Below are positions 1,168 to 25,472 of a stretch of DNA of 64,000 nucleotides, piece by piece; the stretch's first letter is position 1, and each line of letters begins with the position of its first letter. A program made the translations under genes and the position numbers. Origin of the DNA: Candidatus Omnitrophota bacterium (GTDB lineage Bacteria; Omnitrophota; Gorgyraeia; JABMRG01). The notes below the pieces were generated by a model, which did no database searches, had not been told where the DNA came from, and saw only the letters and a list, made by a program, of their open reading frames with translations. The stretch lies in the NCBI GenBank assembly GCA_030593065.1, contig JAUVHV010000001.1, positions 145,965 through 209,964 of the forward strand. Reading direction: 5' to 3'.

Positions 1168-2628
1168 ATGATTAACGCATATAACGGCCCCTTAGAAAAA
1201 ATAGATAATTATCGCTGGCGTATACCAAAATCTTTTATGGTTAGTATGCGTGTAGACGGCCTGATATACGCGAATGATAAGCTTATAGATTCAATAAGAA
1301 AAGATAGCGCTTTACAGCAGGTAGCGAATGTTGCCACGCTTCCAGGCATAGTAAAACATTCTTTTGCCATGCCTGATATTCATTGGGGATATGGTTTTTC
1401 AATAGGAGGCCTGGCTGCAACAGATATTGAAAAGGGCGGGGTAATCTCACCCGGAGGTGTTGGGTATGATATAAATTGCGGCGTCAGGCTTTTAAAAACC
1501 GATTTATTTGAAAAAGATATAAAACTTAAGCTCAAAGAATTGGTCTATGGATTATATTATAATGTTCCCGCGGGGATCGGTTCAAAAGGCGATATAAAAA
1601 TCAGCGTCAAAGAAGAAGAGAAGATTCTTACCAAGGGAGCTGCATGGGCCCTTTCTAAGGGGTATGCGACAGAGTCAGATATCGAGCATACCGAAGATAG
1701 GGGTGTCATGGAAGGGGCAAATCCTGATGCTGTGTCCGAGAGGGCTTATGAGCGTGGCAGAAAGCAATCCGGAACATTAGGCTCGGGGAACCATTTTATA
1801 GAGATCCAGGTAGTAGATAAGATATATGATGAGAAAGCAGCGGGCATATTCGGCCTTTCAAAAGATCAGATTACGGTTATGGTTCATTCCGGTTCGCGCG
1901 GATTTGGTTACCAGATATGCGATGACTACGCGAAAAAAATGGTCCATACTCTTTCAAAATATAATATTAAGATTCCTGACAGGCAGCTTGCCTGCGTTCC
2001 TTTAGATTCTGAAGAAGGTAAGCTCTATTTTGGCGCTATGAAGTGCGCGGCAAACTACGCATGGAATAACAGGCAGTGCCTTATGCATCTGGTAAGGCAG
2101 ACTTTTGAAAAGATATTTGCAAAAAGTTCACAAGCGCTTGGGATATCGCTTATATATGACCTTGCGCATAATATAGCAAAACTTGAAAAGCATGTTGTAG
2201 ATGGCAGAGAGAAGGTTTTATGCGTGCACCGAAAAGGAGCAACACGGGCGTTTGGGCCGAACCATCCCGAACTTCCGCAAAAATATAAGGATATCGGCCA
2301 GCCTGTTATTATACCTGGTGATATGGGGACAGGATCATACCTTCTTCTTGGCACGCAAGCTGCCATGGATGAGACATTTGGCACAACCTGTCATGGGGCA
2401 GGAAGATGCTTATCCCGAAAAGCAGCATCACATAACTATACAGTAGCGCAGGTAAAAAAAGAGCTTGAGAAGAAAGGCATTGCCATAATGGCAGCTGGAA
2501 AAAATACAATTACAGAAGAGGCCCCCGGAGCTTACAAAGATATAGATGATGTAGTTGACGCGGTAGATGGCGCTGGTATATCAAGGAGGGTTTGTAGGTT
2601 TAGGCCGTTAGGAGTGTTAAAAGGATAG
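1168..2628 (+). CDS. rtcB: RNA-splicing ligase RtcB (3'-phosphate/5'-hydroxyl RNA ligase)
   Basis: 486 aa. HWGYGFSIGG, GYDINCGVR and NHFIEIQ metal/GTP-binding motifs characteristic of RtcB. Confidence 0.9.
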   Translation: MINAYNGPLEKIDNYRWRIPKSFMVSMRVDGLIYANDKLIDSIRKDSALQQVANVATLPGIVKHSFAMPDIHWGYGFSIGGLAATDIEKGGVISPGGVGYDINCGVRLLKTDLFEKDIKLKLKELVYGLYYNVPAGIGSKGDIKISVKEEEKILTKGAAWALSKGYATESDIEHTEDRGVMEGANPDAVSERAYERGRKQSGTLGSGNHFIEIQVVDKIYDEKAAGIFGLSKDQITVMVHSGSRGFGYQICDDYAKKMVHTLSKYNIKIPDRQLACVPLDSEEGKLYFGAMKCAANYAWNNRQCLMHLVRQTFEKIFAKSSQALGISLIYDLAHNIAKLEKHVVDGREKVLCVHRKGATRAFGPNHPELPQKYKDIGQPVIIPGDMGTGSYLLLGTQAAMDETFGTTCHGAGRCLSRKAASHNYTVAQVKKELEKKGIAIMAAGKNTITEEAPGAYKDIDDVVDAVDGAGISRRVCRFRPLGVLKG

Positions 2629-2644
2629 GAAACAAAGGGAGAGG

Positions 2645-3937
2645 GTGAATAGCATGCTTGATATGAGATTTATAAGGGAAAATCCTGATAGAGTAAAAGA
2701 GGCCATAAAGAATAGAAATTTAAAGCTTAATATTGACGAATTTCTTGATATGGATAAAGAGCGCAGGAACCTACTGGTTGAAGTAGATAAGCTCAAGAAT
2801 ACGCGCAATATAGAGTCTGATGAGATAGCAGCTCTTAAGAAACAGGGCAAAGATGCCAGTGTAAAGCTAAGTCAAATGAAGCTAGTATCCCAAAAAATTA
2901 AGGAAATTGACTCAAAAGTGGAGGCAATATGTAATAAAATACAAAATATAGCAATGCTTATCCCAAATATACCACATTCAAGCACACCTATTGGTTCTGA
3001 CGCAAAATCGAACAAAGTGATAAAAGAGTGGGGTAAGTTACCTAATTTTAAGTTTAATCCTTTAAACCACATAGAGTTAGGTGAAAAACTAAACATTATG
3101 AGCTTTCCAGCATCTGCAAAATTATCTGGCTCAGGTTTCTGTTTATTCACAGGTGATGGAGCTATGATGGTACGCGCGCTTCTCAATTTTATGATTGATT
3201 TACATACTAAAAAACATGGTTATAGGGAGGTGTGGCCCCCGGTATTAGTAAATCGCAGGAGTATGACTACTACTGGCCAGCTCCCTAAATTTGAAGAGGA
3301 TATGTATAAACTAAAAGATGATGATCTATTCCTTATACCTACAGCAGAGGTTCCTCTGACTAATATACATAGCCATGATATCCTTGATGAAGAGGATTTG
3401 CCTATATATTACACCGCATATACCCCATGTTTTAGAAGAGAGGCAGGCTCATACGGTAAGGATACGAAAGGCCTTTCAAGAGTCCATCAGTTTGATAAAG
3501 TGGAGATGGTAAAGTTTGTGAAGCCTGAAGACTCATATGATGAGCTTGAATCGCTGCTTGCTAACGCGGAAAAAGTTTTGCAGATTCTTAAGTTGCCTTA
3601 CAGGGTGCAGCTTCTTTCGACCGGTGATATAAGTTTTGCCGCAAGTAAATGTTATGATATCGAATTATGGGCCGTGGGAAGCGCTGTATGGCTTGAGGTC
3701 TCCAGTTGTTCAAATTTTGAAGATTTTCAGGCAAGGCGCGGCAACATAAAATTTAAAAATAAGAACACGGGAAAGCTTTCTTACGTTCATACGCTTAATG
3801 GTTCAGGAGTTGCCTTTGCCAGGCTTATTATCGCTATAATAGAGAATTACCAGACAAAAGCGGGTTTTGTCGAAATTCCCAGAGTATTACAACCTTACAT
3901 GGGCGGTAAGAAGATTATAAAACCAGTTTCAAAATAG
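2645..3937 (+). CDS. serS: Seryl-tRNA synthetase
   Basis: N-terminal coiled-coil tRNA-binding arm (MLDMRFIRENPDRVKEAIKNR). Class II core motifs (FRREAGS, GSGVAFARL). 430 aa. Confidence 0.9.
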   Translation: MNSMLDMRFIRENPDRVKEAIKNRNLKLNIDEFLDMDKERRNLLVEVDKLKNTRNIESDEIAALKKQGKDASVKLSQMKLVSQKIKEIDSKVEAICNKIQNIAMLIPNIPHSSTPIGSDAKSNKVIKEWGKLPNFKFNPLNHIELGEKLNIMSFPASAKLSGSGFCLFTGDGAMMVRALLNFMIDLHTKKHGYREVWPPVLVNRRSMTTTGQLPKFEEDMYKLKDDDLFLIPTAEVPLTNIHSHDILDEEDLPIYYTAYTPCFRREAGSYGKDTKGLSRVHQFDKVEMVKFVKPEDSYDELESLLANAEKVLQILKLPYRVQLLSTGDISFAASKCYDIELWAVGSAVWLEVSSCSNFEDFQARRGNIKFKNKNTGKLSYVHTLNGSGVAFARLIIAIIENYQTKAGFVEIPRVLQPYMGGKKIIKPVSK

Positions 3938-3952
3938 CCGCAATCTCTTTTT

Positions 3953-4618
3953 ATGCTTAAACGAGTTTTAAAATTACTTTTAGGTATTTTTATAATACCT
4001 GTCTGCATAGGTGTCTCTCTTGGACTTTATGAGCAGTTGAACCGGATAAAGGTGATCTCTTATTACCATCAAAAGTATTTTGTAATAGGTATAGTAGCTT
4101 ATCTTGTAGTACACGCTGTAATATTTAAGCCCTCGTATTTGTATATATTCAGCCATGAGTTTATGCATGTTATAGCTACATGGATATCAGGCGGCAAGGT
4201 TACGAGTTTTAAGGTCTCTCCTAAAGGAGGCAGCGTCTCTGTTACAAAAAGTAATCTCTTTATAGCGCTTGCGCCTTATTTTTTTCCATTTTATACTATA
4301 GTAATTACTATTGTCTTTTTCACAGCAAATTTTTTTTTAAAGGGTGGTATAAATTACAATCCATTCCTGTTTGCAATAGGCTTTGCCCTGGCTTTTCATA
4401 TCATACTTACTGTGGATTTTTTAAAGATAAGACAGACAGATCTTATGCATGCAGGATATCTCTTTTCAATATGCCTTATATATATTGTAAATCTTATAAT
4501 AATAGGGCTTATATTCAGCCTGCTCTTTGGGAGTGTAACGTTTAAAGAATTTTTAATGGATACCTATTTTAAGTCAAAAGATATATACGTAAGCGCGTAT
4601 CAGCAACTTTTTTTGTAA
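3953..4618 (+). CDS. Polytopic membrane protein with HEXXH motif (putative zincin-like membrane metallopeptidase, DUF3267-like)
   Basis: About 6 TM segments. HEFMH motif inside a TM-proximal region. Confidence 0.35.
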   Translation: MLKRVLKLLLGIFIIPVCIGVSLGLYEQLNRIKVISYYHQKYFVIGIVAYLVVHAVIFKPSYLYIFSHEFMHVIATWISGGKVTSFKVSPKGGSVSVTKSNLFIALAPYFFPFYTIVITIVFFTANFFLKGGINYNPFLFAIGFALAFHIILTVDFLKIRQTDLMHAGYLFSICLIYIVNLIIIGLIFSLLFGSVTFKEFLMDTYFKSKDIYVSAYQQLFL

Positions 4619-4631
4619 ACAGCACTAATAT

Positions 4632-4660
4632 TTGACAACAATCACCTCTAGTGGTATATT
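4632..4660 (+). promoter_or_regulatory. Sigma70-type promoter TTGACA-17-TATATT upstream of tRNA-Ser(UGA)
   Basis: TTGACA at 4632-4637, 17-nt spacer, TATATT at 4655-4660. The tRNA starts about 18 nt downstream. Confidence 0.45.
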
Positions 4661-4678
4661 ATACCTCTAAAACCAAGC

Positions 4679-4768
4679 GGAGGAGTGGCAGAGTCTGGTT
4701 GATCGCGGCGGTCTTGAAAACCGTTGTGGGGCAACTCACCGTGGGTTCGAATCCTACCTCCTCCGCCA
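4679..4768 (+). tRNA. tRNA-Ser (anticodon UGA)
   Basis: Cloverleaf with 7-bp acceptor stem (GGAGGAG/CTCCTCC), anticodon loop cuTGAaa, long variable arm, GGTTCGAATCC T-loop, encoded CCA. Confidence 0.85.
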
Positions 4769-4793
4769 GTTAATATTTCAAAAAGCAAAAGTA

Positions 4794-5222
4794 ATGACAG
4801 ATATAACAATACAAAAGGCTCAGGAATCCGATTGGTCGTATATACAGGAAAAATTGGATAAATATGTCTTAGATGCTACTGATGCCAAATGGCACCAGTT
4901 TTTTGTAGCCAAACTTGATGGTAAGACAGTTGCTTTTACAAGAATAATTGAACGTGGTGACGCTGTTGAGCTTGCATCTATGGGCGTGGATTATTATGAG
5001 CGCAAAAAAGGTATTGGCAAAAGACTACTCAAGTTTTTGATAGAAGAAGCAAAGAAGCTTTATCCTGGTAAGCCTATCTTCGGCGTTACCCATAGGCCCG
5101 GCTTTTTAAAACTCCTTGGTTTCAAGGAAGCCAAAGAAGTCCCTGAGGTATTAAAACATAAAAAATATCACCAGTGCGCGCTGGACCCCTCTAAGATTAA
5201 AATAATGAGATTAATGGTTTAA
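4794..5222 (+). CDS. GNAT family N-acetyltransferase
   Basis: 142 aa. Motif A-like R-K-K-G-I-G-K-R-L-L acetyl-CoA binding loop. Confidence 0.6.
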   Translation: MTDITIQKAQESDWSYIQEKLDKYVLDATDAKWHQFFVAKLDGKTVAFTRIIERGDAVELASMGVDYYERKKGIGKRLLKFLIEEAKKLYPGKPIFGVTHRPGFLKLLGFKEAKEVPEVLKHKKYHQCALDPSKIKIMRLMV

Positions 5223-5311
5223 GGAGAGATGGCTGAGTGGTTGAAAGCGGTCGCCTCGAAAGCGATTAGGCCCTTTGGGCCTCGGGGGTTCAAATCCTCC
5301 TCTCTCCGCCA
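5223..5311 (+). tRNA. tRNA-Ser (anticodon CGA)
   Basis: Acceptor GGAGAGA/TCTCTCC, anticodon stem GTCGC/GCGAT with loop cuCGAaa, long variable arm TAGGCCCTTTGGGCCTC, GGTTCAAATCC T-loop, CCA encoded. Starts 1 nt after the GNAT stop. Confidence 0.85.
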
Positions 5312-5344
5312 AGAACTAGCCATAAAAAAATTTCCATAAAAGAC

Positions 5345-5373
5345 TTGACATGCGGGATTGAGTAGTGTATATT
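5345..5373 (+). promoter_or_regulatory. Sigma70-type promoter TTGACA-17-TATATT upstream of the fur-family gene
   Basis: TTGACA 5345-5350, 17-nt spacer, TATATT 5368-5373. Confidence 0.45.
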
Positions 5374-5394
5374 AGTAATGGAAACCATTATCAA
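5374..5394 (+). promoter_or_regulatory. Fur-box-like palindrome (AATGGAAACCATTATC) immediately downstream of the -10 element
   Basis: 13/16 match to the AATGATAATCATTATC core of the Fur box consensus. Contains the inverted repeat AATGG/CCATT. Position suggests autoregulation. Confidence 0.35.
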
Positions 5395-5408
5395 TAAGGA
5401 GTTACCTG

Positions 5409-5924
5409 ATGCCAAGATGGGATACAATGCATGATTTGCCTACAGGCGGGCAGGCAGGTGGTAGGCATGGAAGAGGGCCGCTGTGGTGGCATGGAAGATT
5501 TCATGGTTGCGGATACAGAATAACTGTACCCAGGCAGGCTATTTTGAATGTATTGAGCAAAACATCAGAGCATTTAAGTGCTGAGGATGTATACATAGCT
5601 GTTCACAAGATATATCCGAACGTTGGCCTTACAACTGTTTATCGTACATTGGAATTACTTGTTCAGATGGGGATTGTTTGCAAAATCGATTTTGGTGATA
5701 AAAGAGCACGATACGAGTTATCAGAAGGGCCGAAAGGTAAAAGACACCATCACCATTTAGTATGCACAAAATGTGGCCGTATTATTGATTATACGGATTT
5801 TATTGATAAGGAGATAGAGCTACTTACTAAAACAGAAAAAGCGCTCGCAAAAAAGCATAATTTTGAAATAAATAACCATCTTATTCAATTTTATGGATTA
5901 TGCAGCGAATGCCGCAAAGAGTAA
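5409..5924 (+). CDS. Fur family transcriptional regulator (Fur/Zur/PerR)
   Basis: ITVPRQAILNVL DNA-binding helix region, HHHH-LVC-TKCG and C-SEC-R metal-binding motifs. N-terminal 30-40 aa are atypical, so the true start may be downstream (e.g. ATG at 5427). Confidence 0.75.
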   Translation: MPRWDTMHDLPTGGQAGGRHGRGPLWWHGRFHGCGYRITVPRQAILNVLSKTSEHLSAEDVYIAVHKIYPNVGLTTVYRTLELLVQMGIVCKIDFGDKRARYELSEGPKGKRHHHHLVCTKCGRIIDYTDFIDKEIELLTKTEKALAKKHNFEINNHLIQFYGLCSECRKE

Positions 5925-5937
5925 AAGATTTTGTTAG

Positions 5938-5958
5938 TTGATGATAATGATTTTTAAG
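5938..5958 (+). promoter_or_regulatory. Second Fur-box-like motif (GATGATAATGATTTT) upstream of the DUF5320/NifX-like operon
   Basis: Contains the TGATAATGAT core of the Fur box consensus GATAATGATAATCATTATC. Located between the fur gene and the first DUF5320 gene. Confidence 0.35.
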
Positions 5959-5977
5959 AAAAAAGGAGGTGATTAAG

Positions 5978-6337
5978 ATGCCAGGTGGAGATAGAACAGG
6001 ACCCATGGGAATGGGGTCAATGACAGGCCGCGGAGCAGGTTACTGTGCCGGTTATCCTATGCCAGGTTATGCCAATTTTATTCCAGGCCAAGGCATGGGC
6101 TTTGGCCGTGGTTTTGGCAGGGGCCGCGGCTGGAGAAATAATAGGCTAAATTACGGGGCATTTCAGGGATATGCGTATCAAGCAGGGCGATATTACCAGG
6201 ATGCTAATGTTTCAGGGTTTACGTCACAGCAAGAAGCAGAGATGCTTAAAAAAGAAGCTAAGTTTATGCAGGATGAAATTAGTTCCATAAATCAGCGCAT
6301 AAGTGAATTAGAATCTTTGGATAAAAAAACTGAGTAA
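5978..6337 (+). CDS. DUF5320 family protein (Gly-rich with C-terminal coiled coil)
   Basis: N-terminal M-P-G-G-D-R-T-G-P hallmark of DUF5320, Gly/Arg-rich middle, coiled-coil tail. Start placed at the ATG 8 nt after the GGAGG RBS. The ORF track starts at the in-frame GTG 5969. Confidence 0.55.
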   Translation: MPGGDRTGPMGMGSMTGRGAGYCAGYPMPGYANFIPGQGMGFGRGFGRGRGWRNNRLNYGAFQGYAYQAGRYYQDANVSGFTSQQEAEMLKKEAKFMQDEISSINQRISELESLDKKTE

Positions 6338-6423
6338 GAAGCATCTATACTAAAGTTATAGTAGGTAAAAGGGGGATACTTTTACCTACTTATCGTATAT
6401 ATGTGTAAAAAAGGAGATTTTTT

Positions 6424-18406: not shown

Positions 18407-19363
18407 TTATAGGCAGGCCGTAGTATAGAACGGATATTTCGTAATATAGGCATGCTTTCTGGCCCCCCCCTTTTTAACATTCATTAAATGCCTACTGCGT
18501 AGATTAGTTACATGCCAACACGAAGCACCTTCAAGCTTTGCCATAGATGCCGCAAATACAATATTTCGAAATAGTTGCTCATAAAACAGCGTGGAAGGTT
18601 TGGAGAAGTCAAATATTTGGTTAGTGTCTATAATCTTATTCTTTGTACAGTATCTCTCAATCAGTTTAGAGGCACTCTTGGGTTTTTCACCAATGGAAGA
18701 TTCTTTTTCTTTAGCGATGGGGTTCTTGCTACCAAATTTAGCTTCAATACACACAACAATTTTCTTCGGTACCACAAGCATAATGTCTGGCTCGGTAGCA
18801 AAGTGTTTTATATCGCCTTCTAAGTGATTTCTCATTTCAATTAAAGGTTCATAAGGCACAAATTGGTTATGTTTTAGGTCTATCTTTCCTCCCCATAAGT
18901 ATAAGTCAACATTGTCGTGTATCTCGCGCCTTACTATGTGACTCAATAGCTTCCTCAGGCCATGTCCGGCAGATAACATTTCAGTAAATACGTTATAAGA
19001 CACAGCATCTTCGCTGCTTTCATAACAAAGGCGCCCAAACTCCATCTTGTTGGCCTGTTTAAAGAAATTTGCAACGTAGTAATCTCTATGGAAGGGTAGA
19101 TTGCGTCTCGTGGCAATTACTAAATCTTCTTTGCTTGGTCCGTTGTAATAGACAAAGCCATTATTATGTATTCTTATGGCGTGTTCGGGGCAGAAGGGAA
19201 GGTATCTCATCTTACCCTTGTATCGCTGAAAAGGAACTTTATTAGAATGGATATGTGTGGTACAGTGTTTGACGGGGCATTTACCAAATAGGAGCCTTGT
19301 TTTTTGTAGGTCATTTCGCGTAAGCGATATTGTGCAAGGTGAAGATAATATAGAGTTAGACAC
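18407..19363 (-). CDS. PD-(D/E)xK restriction-endonuclease-like nuclease with N-terminal Cys/His zinc-finger
   Basis: E-P-D-IMLVVPKKIVVC-I-E-A-K matches the PD...ExK catalytic core. N-terminal CPVKHC...CPEH. Contains a G8 (C8 on + strand) homopolymer at 18463-18470 near the 3' end. Confidence 0.5.
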   Translation of the reverse strand: MSNSILSSPCTISLTRNDLQKTRLLFGKCPVKHCTTHIHSNKVPFQRYKGKMRYLPFCPEHAIRIHNNGFVYYNGPSKEDLVIATRRNLPFHRDYYVANFFKQANKMEFGRLCYESSEDAVSYNVFTEMLSAGHGLRKLLSHIVRREIHDNVDLYLWGGKIDLKHNQFVPYEPLIEMRNHLEGDIKHFATEPDIMLVVPKKIVVCIEAKFGSKNPIAKEKESSIGEKPKSASKLIERYCTKNKIIDTNQIFDFSKPSTLFYEQLFRNIVFAASMAKLEGASCWHVTNLRSRHLMNVKKGGARKHAYITKYPFYTTACL

Positions 19364-19428
19364 AATTTATTATACACCGTAGTGTAGTTAGGTGTCAATA
19401 GGTAAAAAACCGTAGCATAATACGGTGT

Positions 19429-19644
19429 ATGCAAAAGAATATACGGTTGCAATTTGCAGAGAAGATTAAGAAGCTACGCAAGAAACTGGGGTATACTCAG
19501 GAAAAGCTTGCTGAGCTGACAAAGATAGACTACAAATATATCCAGCGAATAGAAGGCAAGAATCCACCTGCCGTGAAGATTGATACTATCCAGAGAATTG
19601 CTCAAGCCCTCAAGGTTGACTCATCAAAACTTCTTGACGAATAG
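19429..19644 (+). CDS. XRE-family helix-turn-helix transcriptional regulator (R-M controller-like)
   Basis: 71 aa. LRKKLGYTQEKLAELTKIDYKYIQRIE HTH_3 pattern. Divergent from the nuclease gene. Confidence 0.7.
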   Translation: MQKNIRLQFAEKIKKLRKKLGYTQEKLAELTKIDYKYIQRIEGKNPPAVKIDTIQRIAQALKVDSSKLLDE

Positions 19645-19765
19645 TGTTACCAGCCGAAGCAAATCCAACACTGAGTTTTTAATAGTGTTTTTATAAGAAG
19701 AATGCTATAATGATTTTACTGGCAATACAGATATGTCATAGAGCCTCTTCAAGAAAGGAGTTGGT

Positions 19766-21121
19766 ATGACCCCCATAAGAATTAAACCAATCAGACTTAC
19801 AAATTTACTTCTCAACCAAGACAACCCCAGATTTGACCCCGTAACACACCAAAGAGAAGCCTTGGATTCCGTAGTGAGTACTAAAGTCTTACGGGACAAA
19901 GCAAGATATTTAGCACAAGATATTATAGAAGCTGGGGTTAATCCCGCGGAACTAATTATTGTAGCGGCAGCGATAGATAATAAGCATAAGGTTTTGGAGG
20001 GAAATCGTAGAGTAGCTGTATTAAAGCTACTTGCTAACCCCGAAATTTTCAAAGACAAGCACAAGGCTTTTACGAAGCAAATGAAAAAATTGTCAAACGA
20101 ATTTCGTAAGGCACCTATTAAAACGATACAATGTGTTATTATTACAGATGAATCAGCAGCAAACAGATGGATTAAGTTAAAACATACAGGAGAAAACAAA
20201 GGAAGAGGAACTGTTACTTGGGACGCACAACAAGTAGCAAGATTTGACTCAAGAGTTGCCGATAAATCATCAGTTGGATTACAAGCAATAGATTTTGTTA
20301 AAGGTTTTGCAGATAGCGCTTTGTTAGCTAAAATTAAACACGTGTCTATTACAAACCTTGAAAGACTCTTAACCGACAAAAATATACAGACGGTATTAGG
20401 GGTTACAATCGAAGATGGATTGTTAAGGACGGACCTTTTAAGGGAAGAAGTTAAAAAAGGTCTACATAAGGTTGTTAGCGATATCGCAGAAAAGAAATTA
20501 AAAGTGAAAGATATCTATACGAAAGAAGACAGAAAAGAATACATTGAGGATTTTAAACCGAAAGTAGATATTCCTGACAACAAGAAAAAAGCTGAGAACG
20601 TATGGAGTTTATCTCAGGGAGAACCGCAAAAACCGACTAAACAAAAAAGTAAACAAAAACCTGAACCGCTTTCCACAGATAGAACTGCGATAATCCCACA
20701 ACGTTGTGTTTTGACTATCAAGCCACCCAAAATCAACAAGATATACACAGAGCTTAAGTATTTGAATGTGGATGAGTTTACGAACGCCGGGGGTGTTTTG
20801 TTTCGAGTATTTTTAGAAATGAGCGTGGATGTGTTTATTGACAAGCATGGGATTCCTAAAGTAAGGAAAAAAGATGGGCGGCCATTATCACTACGCGAAA
20901 AATTGAATAATGTGGAAAAATATATGCAAAGCAGCGGGATGGCAACAAAACCCGAATTAAAAGCGGTACGCATTATGGCACAAACGAGAGACAGTATATA
21001 TTCTGTTGATACATTCAATGACTATGTTCACAATCGTCATTTCTCGCCCGATTCTAAAGAATTAAAAACTATATGGGATAATATACAAGTATTTTTTGAA
21101 AAGCTATGGAGCAATGTATAA
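19766..21121 (+). CDS. ParB/Sulfiredoxin N-terminal domain protein with ~330-aa uncharacterised C-terminal region
   Basis: I-R-L-T-N-L-L-L-N-Q-D-N-P-R (ParB box NPR) and E-G-N-R-R-V-A (GxRR) motifs in the first 100 aa. Lys-rich linker. C-terminal domain unknown. Confidence 0.5.
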   Translation: MTPIRIKPIRLTNLLLNQDNPRFDPVTHQREALDSVVSTKVLRDKARYLAQDIIEAGVNPAELIIVAAAIDNKHKVLEGNRRVAVLKLLANPEIFKDKHKAFTKQMKKLSNEFRKAPIKTIQCVIITDESAANRWIKLKHTGENKGRGTVTWDAQQVARFDSRVADKSSVGLQAIDFVKGFADSALLAKIKHVSITNLERLLTDKNIQTVLGVTIEDGLLRTDLLREEVKKGLHKVVSDIAEKKLKVKDIYTKEDRKEYIEDFKPKVDIPDNKKKAENVWSLSQGEPQKPTKQKSKQKPEPLSTDRTAIIPQRCVLTIKPPKINKIYTELKYLNVDEFTNAGGVLFRVFLEMSVDVFIDKHGIPKVRKKDGRPLSLREKLNNVEKYMQSSGMATKPELKAVRIMAQTRDSIYSVDTFNDYVHNRHFSPDSKELKTIWDNIQVFFEKLWSNV

Positions 21122-21124
21122 ACT

Positions 21125-21985
21125 ATGAGATTCAATTCTCCATTAAGATATCCAGGTGGTAAGGGTAAAATGGCGGGTTTTTTTCAATCTGTTATAGCAG
21201 ACAATAATCTTTTTGACGGCATTTATGTCGAACCATATGCGGGTGGAGCATCAGTAGCTTTATCATTGCTTTTTAACGAATATGTCTCAAAGGTGGTCAT
21301 TAATGACATCGACCGTTCTATATATGCTTTTTGGCATTCTGTTTTAAACCATACTGAAAAACTATGTAACTTAATATCAAAAACAGATGTAAATTTTAAA
21401 AACTGGCAAAAGAATAAGGAAATACAAAGACAGAAAAAAACCGCATCATTAGTAGAATTAGGATTTTCTACATTTTTTTTAAATAGGACAAATATATCTG
21501 GCATTATAAAAGGTGGAGTTATAGGAGGGGTGCAACAAAAAGGCAAATGGAAAATAGATGCGCGGTTCAACAAAAACAACTTAATTGGCCGCATACAACG
21601 CATAGCCGAATATAGCAATAGAATCGAATTGCATAATTTAGATGCATGTAAATTATTGCAGAAGCAGGCAAAGCGACTACCTAAGAAGACTATATTTTAT
21701 TTTGACCCCCCGTATTATGCTAAAGGAAAAGATTTATATATCAATCATTATGGCCCAGACGACCATAAAAAAGTTTCCAGTGTAATAAAAAAGATTAAGA
21801 GGCATAGGTGGATTGTTTCGTATGATAATCAATCGGAAATAAAAATGCTTTACAAGGTTTATAGAAAAATGGAATATTGTTTAAAATATAGCGTATCTAA
21901 ACCCAGCGTAGGAACAGAAGTAATGTTTTTTAGCCACAATTTAATAATACCTACAGCCAGCATCCCCGCCGAAACTGCGCGGTAA
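21125..21985 (+). CDS. Dam-family (D12 class) N6-adenine DNA methyltransferase
   Basis: N-terminal YPGGK / EPYAGGASV SAM-binding motifs. Catalytic DPPY (FYFDPPYY). Confidence 0.75.
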   Translation: MRFNSPLRYPGGKGKMAGFFQSVIADNNLFDGIYVEPYAGGASVALSLLFNEYVSKVVINDIDRSIYAFWHSVLNHTEKLCNLISKTDVNFKNWQKNKEIQRQKKTASLVELGFSTFFLNRTNISGIIKGGVIGGVQQKGKWKIDARFNKNNLIGRIQRIAEYSNRIELHNLDACKLLQKQAKRLPKKTIFYFDPPYYAKGKDLYINHYGPDDHKKVSSVIKKIKRHRWIVSYDNQSEIKMLYKVYRKMEYCLKYSVSKPSVGTEVMFFSHNLIIPTASIPAETAR

Positions 21986-22043
21986 ATCAGCTCAAGTTTT
22001 TCAGGAATTTTTTAAAATTCTTGTCAAAAAATTTAATATTTTT

Positions 22044-22087
22044 TAGCCTAACTTGTTATATTGTTTAAAGTTAGGCTTTTTCTTTTT
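22044..22087 (+). terminator. Rho-independent terminator after the MTase gene
   Basis: Stem AGCCTAACT / AGTTAGGCT (9 bp) with a 15-nt loop, followed by TTTTCTTTTT. Confidence 0.5.
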
Positions 22088-22195
22088 CCCTCAAAGTAGC
22101 CATTTCAGCACTTCCTTTCAGAAACTCTTTTCACTAAATAGTTGACAAATTTTAATTTTGGGTGTTTTAACTACTATAGAAACTAAGGAGGTGTC

Positions 22196-22984
22196 ATGCA
22201 TTCTGACAATATTGTGGTGGGTTATGTGCGCGTTTCGACTCAGACACAGGTGCAACATGGAGAGGGATTGGAAATACAAAGACAAAAAATCAAAGAATAT
22301 TGTAGTAAAAGAAAATTACAGTTAAGTAGATTCTATGAAGACAAGGGTATTAGTGGTGCAGTGAAAGATAGGCCGGCATTAATAAACCTATTAAAAGACT
22401 GTGAATCTGGACAAATTAAAAAAGTTATTGTTTATAAGCAGGATAGATTGAGCAGAGAGCTCGGTGTGTCAATGTGGCTTGAGACTCAGTTCAAAAAATA
22501 CAATATTGAACTAATCTCTATTTTTGAGCCAGAATTTGATACAGATGACCCTATGGGCAAGGCACTAAAAAGGATAATAAGCGTATTCGCAGAACTTGAG
22601 AGAGATATTATTGCTTCTCGGCTCCGTGATGGCAGAGAGAACAATGCAAAGAATGGTCAGCGCGGTTCTGGGCCAATACCCTTTGGATACCTAAAAGAGG
22701 GCGATGACTTGGTAATTTGTCCAGATGAAGCAAAGTGGGTTTATAAGATTTATAGATGGCGTGTTAAAGGCCTTAGATATTCAGAGATTGTCAATAGGCT
22801 TAATAAGAATGGCATTAGGACTAAAAGAGGTAAATTATTTCATACAGAAGCTGTTAAATACATACTACAGAACGAATTATATTATGGAGCAACTAACTTT
22901 GGCCTACTTAAAAGCAAGGGTATCCATGAGCCAATAGTAAGCAAAAGGATATTTTTTAAGGTAAAAACAGAAAAAAATAGGTAA
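22196..22984 (+). CDS. Serine recombinase (resolvase/invertase N-domain plus partial recombinase domain), probably C-terminally truncated
   Basis: VGYVRVSTQTQ with catalytic Ser, resolvase fold, start of the recombinase domain (GYLKEGDDLVICPDEAKWVYKIY). At 262 aa it is far shorter than large serine recombinases, and no downstream zinc-ribbon or coiled-coil coding sequence is visible. Confidence 0.65.
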   Translation: MHSDNIVVGYVRVSTQTQVQHGEGLEIQRQKIKEYCSKRKLQLSRFYEDKGISGAVKDRPALINLLKDCESGQIKKVIVYKQDRLSRELGVSMWLETQFKKYNIELISIFEPEFDTDDPMGKALKRIISVFAELERDIIASRLRDGRENNAKNGQRGSGPIPFGYLKEGDDLVICPDEAKWVYKIYRWRVKGLRYSEIVNRLNKNGIRTKRGKLFHTEAVKYILQNELYYGATNFGLLKSKGIHEPIVSKRIFFKVKTEKNR

Positions 22985-23220
22985 GTGAGCTCTCTGGAAA
23001 GGGGTTTATAGGTATAATAATTAGGGAGTAGGAAACACAAGGAGCCCAACAAAGGCTTCACCAAATGCTCATTTTGAGTATGGGGCTTGTATCAGAGTAT
23101 GCATAGAGAGGGCAAAAATATTTTTACTCATTGAAAACAAAGAAGTTACGTCAAAAAAGCCACAAATCGTATTAAACTTTTTTGGCTAAATAGGTATAAT
23201 AAGGTAAAGGAGGTGTAGGA

Positions 23221-23403
23221 ATGACATCAGCAGACATTTTAATGGTAGAGGATATAGCTCAGATTTTAAGGATATCGCAGAATACGATACACAGTAGGCG
23301 ATGGCAGGAGAAGTCCGGCTGTCCCCTTTTCAAGAAGGGTAAACGGCTCTATGCTATAGCTACAGAGTTTTGGAGATGGTTTAGGAGCGATTCGGTAAAA
23401 TGA
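23221..23403 (+). CDS. Excisionase / DNA-binding HTH protein (Xis-like)
   Basis: 60 aa. LMVEDIAQILRISQNTIHSRRWQEK resembles the excisionase-family MerR-like HTH. Overlaps the start of the integrase gene by 4 nt. Confidence 0.5.
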   Translation: MTSADILMVEDIAQILRISQNTIHSRRWQEKSGCPLFKKGKRLYAIATEFWRWFRSDSVK

Positions 23404-24491
23404 AGAATAGAGATGGCGTCAGACAGTTAGGAAAGGGCTTATATGAGGTGAACTTTCGCCCTTTCCCTGGCGCTGATAGGATCTTTAGGAGAGTTAATGT
23501 TCAATCTTTGCAGGAGGCTCGTATAAAAAGAGCAGAGCTATTAGCAGAAAGTAGTCGTTTAGGCAAGCCTTCTGAGTTGCAAAGGACGAGACAGGATAGC
23601 GATATAATTGAATTACAGAAGGTTATAGAAAATGACCTGCTTTCAGATAATAAAGGCAAGAAGACAATTAATAGATTTATATCTTGCTGGAAGACTTTTA
23701 ACCAATTCTTGCGGAAGAAATATTCTGATATAGTTAGTATCAATGAATTGAAAGCAGGTCATTTTAAAGATTATCAAGACTACATTGTTATAGAAAAGCA
23801 AAGAAAGAAAGGCTGGAGAGCAGAGCTTACTATTTTAAAGGCTATTTTTACACGTCTCAGAATAAGGAATTATTGCACAGATGATGCGATAGGAGAGTTA
23901 AATAAGCTAAAGAAGCCACCACGCAACAAAAAGCACTATGAGGATATTCCTGATTTTGCTATAAGAGAAATGCTGACATTTATCGATAAAGATAGGCCAG
24001 ATTATTATGGCCTAACAGTTTTGCTCTATAAATGCGGCTGGCGAATAGAGGAGACGACGCTATTACGCAGAGCAGATATAGAATGGCAAGGGCTTAAGCC
24101 AGGTTCGATATTAATTAGAGGGGAGACCACAAAAACAAAAGTAGAGAGACGTTTTGACATGTTTGATGATGAGTTAGCTCTTGTGATAAGGCGCTATGCA
24201 TTTGATAGAAAAAAGACCACGTGGCTTTTTTCTAATAAGCAAAATGGCAAGATACATGCTGGTCATTATAGAGAATATCTGAAAAAGGTAAGTGGAAATA
24301 TTATGGGAAAAACTATCACGCCTCATTATTTTAGGCATAGACTTTGCACCATAGCAGGTAGAATGAATATGCCGATTAATGATGTTATGGCAATAACGGG
24401 CATACGTGATATAAAGGTTCTTTTGGAATACTACCAGCACACTACAGCAGAGGGGAAAGCGAAAATATTAGCTTTAAATAGCTTAAAGTGA
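23400..24491 (+). CDS. Tyrosine-type site-specific integrase
   Basis: C-terminal catalytic region with R...HxxR...Y (TPHYFRHRLCT ... LLEYYQH). SAM-like N-terminal domain. 363 aa. Confidence 0.8.
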   Translation: MKNRDGVRQLGKGLYEVNFRPFPGADRIFRRVNVQSLQEARIKRAELLAESSRLGKPSELQRTRQDSDIIELQKVIENDLLSDNKGKKTINRFISCWKTFNQFLRKKYSDIVSINELKAGHFKDYQDYIVIEKQRKKGWRAELTILKAIFTRLRIRNYCTDDAIGELNKLKKPPRNKKHYEDIPDFAIREMLTFIDKDRPDYYGLTVLLYKCGWRIEETTLLRRADIEWQGLKPGSILIRGETTKTKVERRFDMFDDELALVIRRYAFDRKKTTWLFSNKQNGKIHAGHYREYLKKVSGNIMGKTITPHYFRHRLCTIAGRMNMPINDVMAITGIRDIKVLLEYYQHTTAEGKAKILALNSLK

Positions 24492-24507
24492 TATAATTAC
24501 AATATAG

Positions 24508-25389
24508 TTGGGAAAGGAGACCAATAATATGTTTATGAAAATATTAGTGATAGGGCTGTTTTTAATCGCAGGTTTATTATTATTACTTACAGCAACTTGG
24601 TTTTATGAATTACCAATTTTACCCTTAAAGAAAATTGTGGGTGCATTAAAAACTCATGAAATAACACTAATGGCTTTATTTAACTTATTTGTAATAGTTA
24701 TAATGTTAATAACTATATTTATAAGTATGGTTTCTTCCCAACAGCAGATTGAAAAGATGCAGGACCAAATTAAATCCGATAAAAAAAATACAGATAGCTA
24801 TATTACTACAACAAAAGATGCTACAGATAAGCAAATAAAAGCTATAAAAGACGCCACTAATAGTCATATAGAAAGGCTTGCAGAAGAGCAGAAGAGAAGA
24901 AGAAAAGAGCTACTGTCAGCTTTGATTTCTGAAATCCAATCTAATATTGAAGAAGGGGATTATTTTTTAAAGCACTTACCACTTACAGAAGATGGGATAA
25001 TATTTTATAATGACTTACCACTTGATATTTTAAACATTAATTTATCTAACAATACGATTACAAGCAAAGTACTATTTGATAAAATTAGAGAATACAAAAA
25101 GGTAATAGTGACGGCTAACAATATGATTCTGAGGGGCAGAGAAAGCGATGTTGATAGATATAACAAAACACAAGAGTTAGTTGGTAAGTGGGAAGGAGCA
25201 AAGAAAGATAGGGATTACAAGTTTGATGACAGCTCTATTAAAGAGATAGATTCTATTCTCTCTAAATTGCCTGAAAAGATTCAAACGCGTAGATGCGAAC
25301 TTTTTCTTATAACGTTTAACTTGATAGGTAATAAGTATAACTTTGTTGATTTGAAACTGAAACTTATAAATTATATGAATGACTTGTAG
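24508..25389 (+). CDS. Hypothetical membrane protein (2 TM plus coiled coil plus unknown C-terminal domain), cargo adjacent to attR
   Basis: Two N-terminal TM helices, a ~70-aa coiled coil (QQQIEKMQDQIKSDKK...), and a C-terminal globular region with no recognisable motif. Confidence 0.3.
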   Translation: MGKETNNMFMKILVIGLFLIAGLLLLLTATWFYELPILPLKKIVGALKTHEITLMALFNLFVIVIMLITIFISMVSSQQQIEKMQDQIKSDKKNTDSYITTTKDATDKQIKAIKDATNSHIERLAEEQKRRRKELLSALISEIQSNIEEGDYFLKHLPLTEDGIIFYNDLPLDILNINLSNNTITSKVLFDKIREYKKVIVTANNMILRGRESDVDRYNKTQELVGKWEGAKKDRDYKFDDSSIKEIDSILSKLPEKIQTRRCELFLITFNLIGNKYNFVDLKLKLINYMNDL

Positions 25390-25453
25390 CAGACTTGAAA
25401 TTTTGGTGGTTTTAACGGTGGTGGGAAGGCTATTTTGAGCTTAAAGCAATGAC

Positions 25454-25472
25454 AATCCCTGCCTCTCCGCCA
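25454..25472 (+). repeat. attR: 19-bp direct repeat of the tRNA-Ser(GGA) 3' end
   Basis: AATCCCTGCCTCTCCGCCA identical to 17240-17258. Confidence 0.8.

Follow-up and report, generated by a model that had tools for sequence, protein, structure and literature searches.

A PD-Lambda-5 gene pair and a frameshifted HTH-nuclease module, probably independent of each other, on a tRNA-Ser-integrated element of Candidatus Omnitrophota

Background

PD-lambda-5 is an anti-phage system that was found by functional selection in Escherichia coli (Vassallo et al. 2022, Nat Microbiol, PMC9519451). It protected E. coli broadly: of ten phages tested, only one showed unaffected plating. Its cloning needed an mrr-deleted host, and its discoverers labelled it a compacted system of restriction-modification plus abortive infection (RM+Abi; PMC9519451). 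A survey from 2024 placed it both under HEPN-containing and under RM-related systems. A catalogue published in 2013 included ParB-HEPN fusions and operons that combine a HEPN gene with a ParB nuclease and a DNA methylase, which its authors read as restriction-modification (R-M) with a second-line RNase (Anantharaman et al. 2013, PMC3710099). The present study concerns a copy of PD-Lambda-5 and a neighbouring nuclease gene with its putative regulator, all carried by an integrative element of about 8.2 kb in a Candidatus Omnitrophota bacterium. The stretch analysed, hereafter called the window, comprises 64,000 nucleotides of contig JAUVHV010000001.1 (assembly GCA_030593065.1, positions 145,965 to 209,964), and all coordinates given below refer to it.

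Results and discussion

Identity of the gene pair

The four predicted open reading frames (ORFs) were all present: on the minus strand, a nuclease ORF of 318 aa as encoded (18407-19363) and, on the plus strand, a divergent XRE-family helix-turn-helix (HTH) protein of 71 aa (19429-19644), a 451-aa protein (19766-21121) and a DNA methyltransferase (MTase) of 286 aa (21125-21985). The genes of the last two are separated by 3 nt, and not by 4 nt as previously counted. Our results indicate that these genes very probably form two independent modules on one element, i.e. a PD-Lambda-5 pair (19766-21985) and a disrupted HTH-nuclease module (18274-19644).

The 451-aa protein matched the PADLOC model PDLC03998 (PD-Lambda-5_A) over nearly its whole length (E 3.6e-143, 475.7 bits, residues 6-449 against profile positions 4-465 of 466), and all 25 listed PADLOC sub-models of this component matched it as well. 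Likewise, the 286-aa protein matched PDLC04018 (PD-Lambda-5_B) with an E value of 9e-125 (residues 1-279 against profile positions 1-279 of 291). Its earlier description as a Dam-like enzyme held: it belongs to the D12 class of N6-adenine DNA MTases, as indicated by Pfam PF02086 (7.5e-19), PDB entry 7m6b (2.8e-20) and a DPPY motif. The two proteins are called A and B below. Their genes are co-oriented and adjacent, which is the two-gene arrangement of PD-Lambda-5. On these profile matches, region 19766-21985 is a new copy of an already validated anti-phage system, protection being known for the E. coli prototype only. The original prediction had regarded the pair as functionally uncharacterised, a view superseded by the experimental validation in E. 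coli (PMC9519451). No NCBIfam model matched A or the nuclease.

Several features are shared with the E. coli system. Both consist of an A gene of about 450 codons followed, in the same orientation, by a D12 adenine MTase gene, with full-length matches to the hidden Markov models (HMMs); in both, A displays a HEPN-type domain, carriage is by a mobile element and the system is RM-related. The differences are the host lineage and the carrier, here an 8.2-kb tRNA-Ser element instead of an E. coli prophage.

Genomic distribution

Relatives of A were surveyed with one genome per species; 276 were recovered and the best 80 loci were analysed. These were scattered over Bacteroidota, Leptospira, Bdellovibrio, Dehalococcoidia, Firmicutes, Nitrospira, Planctomycetes and several archaeal lineages, and most were chromosomal. 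In 77 of the 80 loci, the gene directly downstream of A was a co-oriented homologue of B (tblastn, 42-64% identity). The proposal that a ParB-like protein and a Dam-like MTase act as a functional pair was supported. The three remaining loci displayed an inverted B, a contig end after A and no B match, respectively. Within 7 kb of A, no nuclease relative was found in any of the 80 loci, and HTH matches were recorded in only two, both weak and neither adjacent. Clustering of neighbouring ORFs around the 80 A-B loci did not reveal a conserved third gene, no family being present in more than six loci; the commonest neighbours were integrases and recombinases (at most six loci each). As the survey shows, A-B stands on its own as a two-gene module, which is found in many phyla of bacteria and in several lineages of archaea.

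The reciprocal survey covered 80 metagenome loci with nuclease homologues, none of which contained A. A single, unrelated D12 MTase match was recorded (24% identity, 4.5 kb away); no conserved MTase neighbour was found in these loci, where the homologues were solitary or located beside unrelated genes. Environmental metagenomes were the main source of nuclease and backbone homologues, the few named ones being labelled Candidatus Omnitrophota.

These two surveys bear directly on the original prediction, which combined all four genes into a single candidate system for R-M or defence, of non-canonical type, with a restricting nuclease, a controlling HTH, a modifying MTase and a ParB-like accessory NTPase/nuclease. 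Such a system could account for the physical adjacency of the four genes, for the resemblance of the HTH to R-M controllers (PADLOC Control_protein, 4.7e-15) and for the intact PD-(D/E)xK catalytic core of the nuclease. It is nevertheless highly improbable, since nuclease and A were never found together (0/80 in either direction), A-B alone is the experimentally validated unit (PMC9519451), the nuclease gene is frameshifted here and the nuclease stands beside entirely different cargo in related elements (see below). Nor was the nuclease retained as cognate restriction endonuclease (REase) of the MTase; its gene is disrupted in the window. What these results provide is mainly a clarified annotation: the pair of ParB-like protein and Dam-like MTase is PD-Lambda-5, and nuclease and HTH are not to be counted in.

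Besides the A-B loci, another kind of ParB-MTase coupling was noticed in locus L002, where a 430-aa fusion of ParB_N and N6_N4_MTase domains (1784-3076) is encoded in phage-like surroundings, some 5 kb away from a further nuclease gene of the REase-ARP family described below. Its MTase belongs to a family other than that of B, and the coupling is distinct from PD-Lambda-5.

Element backbone and cargo slot

Region 17240-25472 is an integrative element of about 8.2 kb inserted in a tRNA-Ser(GGA) gene. Its two ends are marked by perfect direct repeats of 19 nt, AATCCCTGCCTCTCCGCCA (17240-17258 and 25454-25472). The earlier view of defence cargo on an integrative element was correct, the cargo being PD-Lambda-5. 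The gene order within the element is Rep-like protein, nuclease, HTH, A, B, serine recombinase, Xis-like protein, tyrosine integrase and a 293-aa protein.

The same backbone was observed on metagenome contigs L095/L096 (the same as L006/L007) and L098/L099. Compared to the window, related elements displayed identities of about 70-74% for the nuclease, 69-93% for the serine recombinase, 86-90% for Xis and 63-68% for the integrase; Rep homologues of 66-71% identity occupied the same position in L095, L096 and L098. The slot between nuclease and serine recombinase was filled differently, with an SDH-protease/NfeD gene in one related element and, in another, a RelA_SpoT-domain protein (toxSAS-like) together with a Cas2-like protein of 87 aa. 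Differing cargo on a shared backbone indicates that PD-Lambda-5 fills a variable cargo slot and that the nuclease is a backbone gene. The nuclease module is thus part of the element backbone, or at least mobile independently of PD-Lambda-5, and is devoid of a cognate MTase. The slot itself looks like a hotspot for defence and toxin-antitoxin cargo. Together, these elements define a family of small tRNA-Ser-integrating elements that combine a swappable defence-cargo slot with a backbone-borne, HTH-controlled orphan nuclease of REase fold (REase-ARP).

Nuclease, HTH and control region

The nuclease gene (18274-19363, minus strand, frameshifted) codes for a PD-(D/E)xK enzyme with an N-terminal Cys/His finger. 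Its homologues (n=344) are typically 358 aa long, display at most 75% identity and bear the Pfam domain PF22558 (REase-ARP). Invariant positions in their alignment are C10, C29, C58, H61 and H66, E118/D119, E191-P-D193 and E207-A-K209. Of these, D193, E207-x-K209 and E118/D119 of the catalytic core were present in the window copy, in agreement with the earlier recognition of both core and finger. With respect to the PF22558 gathering threshold of 27 bits, the protein scored 14.3 as encoded and 29.4 once frame-corrected, homologues ranging from 39 to 43. From its sequence, the gene is thus a member of the PF22558 family whose encoded product is truncated. In profile searches, the 451-aa protein led to PD-Lambda-5_A (PADLOC) and the nuclease as encoded to a sub-threshold REase-ARP match (Pfam). 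In the literature, no paper was found that explains PF22558 REase-ARP, the label 'ARP' or any characterised member.

The 71-aa HTH matched Pfam HTH_19 (7e-12) and HTH_3 (3e-11), and its top PADLOC model was the R-M controller mentioned above, consistent with the controller-like character initially proposed. A role as C-protein-like regulator of the nuclease gene is suggested by the 65-bp region separating the two divergent genes (19364-19428). A nuclease promoter with perfect sigma-70 consensus (TTGACA-18-TATAAT) was predicted there on the minus strand, from 19398 to 19369. Moreover, a CACCGTA-N6-TACGG palindrome (19409-19426) abuts the HTH start and a TACGGTG half-site overlaps the -10 element of the nuclease promoter; the HTH would repress this promoter via these putative operator boxes.

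The divergent pair of 71-aa HTH and nuclease also occurred in L005 and L146 (76% identity), where PD-Lambda-5 is missing. Mean identity of the control region reached 84% (window 19364-19428, L005 300-364 and L146 6928-6991), which is above that of the flanking proteins. Conservation of pair and control region in loci devoid of PD-Lambda-5 indicates that HTH and nuclease form a self-contained regulated pair. By analogy, its logic appears similar to that of a C-protein/REase pair, minus the MTase. Common features with C-protein Type II R-M systems are the small XRE HTH, the inverted-repeat boxes over the nuclease promoter and the PD-(D/E)xK fold. Two differences stand out: no cognate MTase accompanies the REase-ARP family here, and the HTH gene is divergent from the nuclease gene instead of being located upstream in the same orientation (C to R).

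Both differences also weigh on a further alternative, in which nuclease, HTH and B would constitute a classical C-protein Type II R-M system with A inserted between them. B does fit the PADLOC Type II MTase model PDLC03358 (1.9e-107), and the HTH is C-protein-like with candidate operator boxes. Yet 77 of 80 loci showed a B-type MTase alongside A, REase-ARP nucleases were without conserved MTase neighbour and the HTH gene lacks the upstream, co-oriented position, so that this proposal is scarcely credible.

Two side observations were made at related nuclease loci. In L146, the region beside the intact HTH-nuclease pair (1720-6400) contained E1-like (ThiF), JAB-like and E2-like genes together with an XRE/ImmA-like pair and an N4/N6 MTase, and it resembles a ubiquitin-like conjugation defence cluster. 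In six loci (L092, L098, L099, L101, L114 and L130), the divergent HTH was replaced by an ORF of about 105 aa (e.g. L098 6411-6728) without Pfam match; its overlap of 4 nt with the nuclease start codon suggests translational coupling.

Frameshift in the nuclease gene

The encoded nuclease departed from all its homologues after the residues HLMNVKKGG, at an A5G8 homopolymer of the minus strand (C8T5 on the plus strand, 18463-18475), and reached a stop 25 codons further on. This tract is the site of a +1 frameshift. Shortening the run to G7 restored the frame through PESMPILRNIRS to a terminal NRAFNIF ending at 18274, which matches the conserved C-terminus; the intact gene would code for about 362 aa. 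The lost segment of about 62 residues folded with good confidence into four helices and one strand in the structural model. At this site, 57 relatives displayed G-runs of 2 to 6, all in frame, and G8 is thus lineage-specific. A Logan contig from SRR18936876, identical to the window over 1701 nt (100%), contained the same G8, indicating that the disruption is reproducible between assemblies. If it is no read-level artefact, it would correspond either to a fixed pseudogene or to a phase-variable tract.

The frameshift gave rise to another reading, in which the nuclease would be a modification-dependent (Type IV-like) enzyme clashing with an incoming N6-methyladenine (m6A) MTase, and the frameshift a scar or a phase-variable OFF state. 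If the nuclease is modification-dependent, an adjacent m6A MTase would indeed select for its inactivation. Several observations are consistent with this: the REase-ARP family is solitary, without cognate MTase; the sole copy located beside a PD-Lambda-5 MTase is also the sole frameshifted one, the 57 relatives being in frame; the frameshift lies within a lineage-specific, slippage-prone G8 tract; and the E. coli system needed an mrr-deleted host, which suggests that its methylation provokes a Type IV enzyme. Yet intact members of the family were found a few kb from other MTases and the whole argument rests on one case. We regard such a conflict as unlikely, if worth retaining as a minor possibility. 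If true, it would be a natural case in which two defence systems share a mobile element and one has put the other out of action, and REase-ARP would be a previously unrecognised HTH-controlled, MTase-independent restriction enzyme.

Domain anatomy of component A

A was modelled with AlphaFold2 on 40 homologues (mean pLDDT 87, pTM 0.74). The model comprises a ParB/Srx domain (about 1-140), a helical middle region (about 150-260), a disordered linker (about 286-298) and a HEPN fold (about 320-451). In Foldseek comparisons against the PDB, ParB-CDP, Noc, KorB, PadC and sulfiredoxin ranked first (E about 1e-3, probability 1.0). The NPR box (20-22) and the GNRR motif noted in the original prediction proved to be invariant or nearly so in the homologue alignment, N20, R22 and V76-L-E-G-N-R-R82 being strictly invariant. 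EGNRR (78-82) is located at a strand-to-helix junction of the model (strand 74-78, helix 80-90). In ParB/Srx proteins, the phosphate-binding GxxR loop sits at such a junction. The N-terminal ParB/Srx assignment was therefore right, but, contrary to the earlier claim, a second part of the protein could also be recognised: the C-terminal 130 aa or so resemble HEPN structures in the model, with R347, E351, Y420 and H422 as invariant residues. This structural assignment, i.e. a ParB/Srx domain with GNRR loop and a non-canonical HEPN domain, supplies concrete residues for mutation.

Sequence comparisons were less informative. Pfam detected no ParB domain, nor anything meaningful, in the 451-aa protein of the window, and only sub-threshold matches were obtained among 40 homologues, to GmrSD_N (DUF262) in eight and to ParB_N in three. 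A, the nuclease and their respective profiles yielded no meaningful match among PDB sequences. When A was compared to a phage database by tblastn, only distant matches were recorded, none above 32% identity, and these came from phages of Vibrio, Pseudomonas and Paracoccus; in the one that was inspected, the record contained no MTase annotation.

A partition function, with A as a plasmid or element ParB and B as an orphan MTase, was also considered in view of the ParB/Srx fold and of the GxxRR motif, which resembles the CTP-binding box of ParB. The probability of this is practically negligible. The ORFs of the element include no ParA and offer no partition context (parS sites were not searched for), a HEPN domain replaces the ParB dimerisation domain, and full-length PD-Lambda-5_A matches were obtained where Pfam ParB_N was not reached. 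In addition, A was coupled to an MTase at 77 of the 80 loci, and the majority of the loci were chromosomal.

A GmrSD/SspE-like enzyme was also considered and rejected: the C-terminus of A fits HEPN and not HNH, and no DUF1524 match was found in A or its homologues. In GmrSD, SspE and BrxU (DUF262 plus DUF1524), the effector is a DUF1524 His-Me finger, in contrast to the HEPN fold of A. Enzymes of this type are modification-dependent or sense phosphorothioate, and we know of none with a partner m6A MTase of B type. A closer parallel is offered by the ParB-HEPN fusions described by Anantharaman et al. (2013), where a ParB-like domain and HEPN are likewise tied to a DNA methylase; that survey was purely computational, and the canonical HEPN motif is not evident in A of the window.

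Proposed mechanism

As an anti-phage module, the pair might operate as follows. B would mark host and element DNA as self by m6A at a short motif. The ParB-like domain of A, which probably binds a nucleotide via its EGNRR loop, would engage unmarked DNA together with the helical, putatively DNA-binding region, and A would then restrict the invader by ParB-like nuclease or HEPN activity. A combination of R-M-like discrimination with a HEPN (Abi-type) effector would fit the 'compacted RM+Abi' label of the E. coli prototype. As to the specificity of modification, E. coli K-12 tolerates Dam-type GATC methylation; the need for an mrr-deleted host thus suggests that the MTase of the prototype is not simply of Dam-type GATC specificity, an argument that concerns the E. 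coli prototype only.

Several points argue against the proposed two-module interpretation or parts of it. The HMMs behind the assignment to PD-Lambda-5 derive from relatives of the E. coli system, and no paper establishing a mechanism for PD-Lambda-5 was found in the literature. The canonical HEPN motif Rx4-6H was not seen in the alignment of A, the corresponding stretch being [ST]-F-N-x-Y-V-H-N, in which F417 occupies the R position and H422 is invariant. The HEPN domain may therefore not be an RNase, and such an activity is not to be assumed, even if the conserved R347 and E351, located on another helix, might substitute for the missing arginine. Furthermore, HTH and A-B are co-oriented and 121 nt apart, without predicted terminator between them, so that an additional effect of the HTH on A-B expression is conceivable in this element. 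Finally, a read-level sequencing error in the homopolymer, shared by both assemblies, might account for the frameshift.

Other features of the element

The tRNA-Ser(GGA) gene was identified by ARAGORN at 17168-17258 on the plus strand, and its last 19 nt (17240-17258) constitute attL. The second copy of this tRNA 3' end (25454-25472, plus strand) forms attR at the right end of the element. All backbone genes described here lie on the plus strand unless mentioned otherwise. The first one (17402-17956) codes for a Rep-like protein of 184 aa (Pfam PF23343 REP_ORF2-G2P, 3.2e-07). Between it and the 3' end of the nuclease gene lies a perfect tandem repeat (18154-18209) of a 25-nt unit, CAAAAACAGGTAGGTTCACAACAAT, present in 2.2 copies, which could represent iterons or a replication origin.

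Downstream of B, the backbone continues with a 262-aa serine recombinase (22196-22984; Pfam Resolvase 3e-37, Recombinase 2.5e-17), followed by an excisionase-like (Xis) protein of 60 aa (23221-23403) that weakly matched HTH_17 (0.0018), and by a tyrosine integrase of 363 aa (23400-24491; Phage_integrase 6e-16). The last gene inside the element (24508-25389) codes for a 293-aa protein that starts with a membrane segment and also contains a coiled-coil region; only weak PADLOC matches were obtained for it (ZorB 7e-05, LeoBC 9e-05). The window contains three tRNA-Ser genes, at 4679-4768 (TGA), 5223-5311 (CGA) and 17168-17258 (GGA), of which the GGA copy alone harbours an element.

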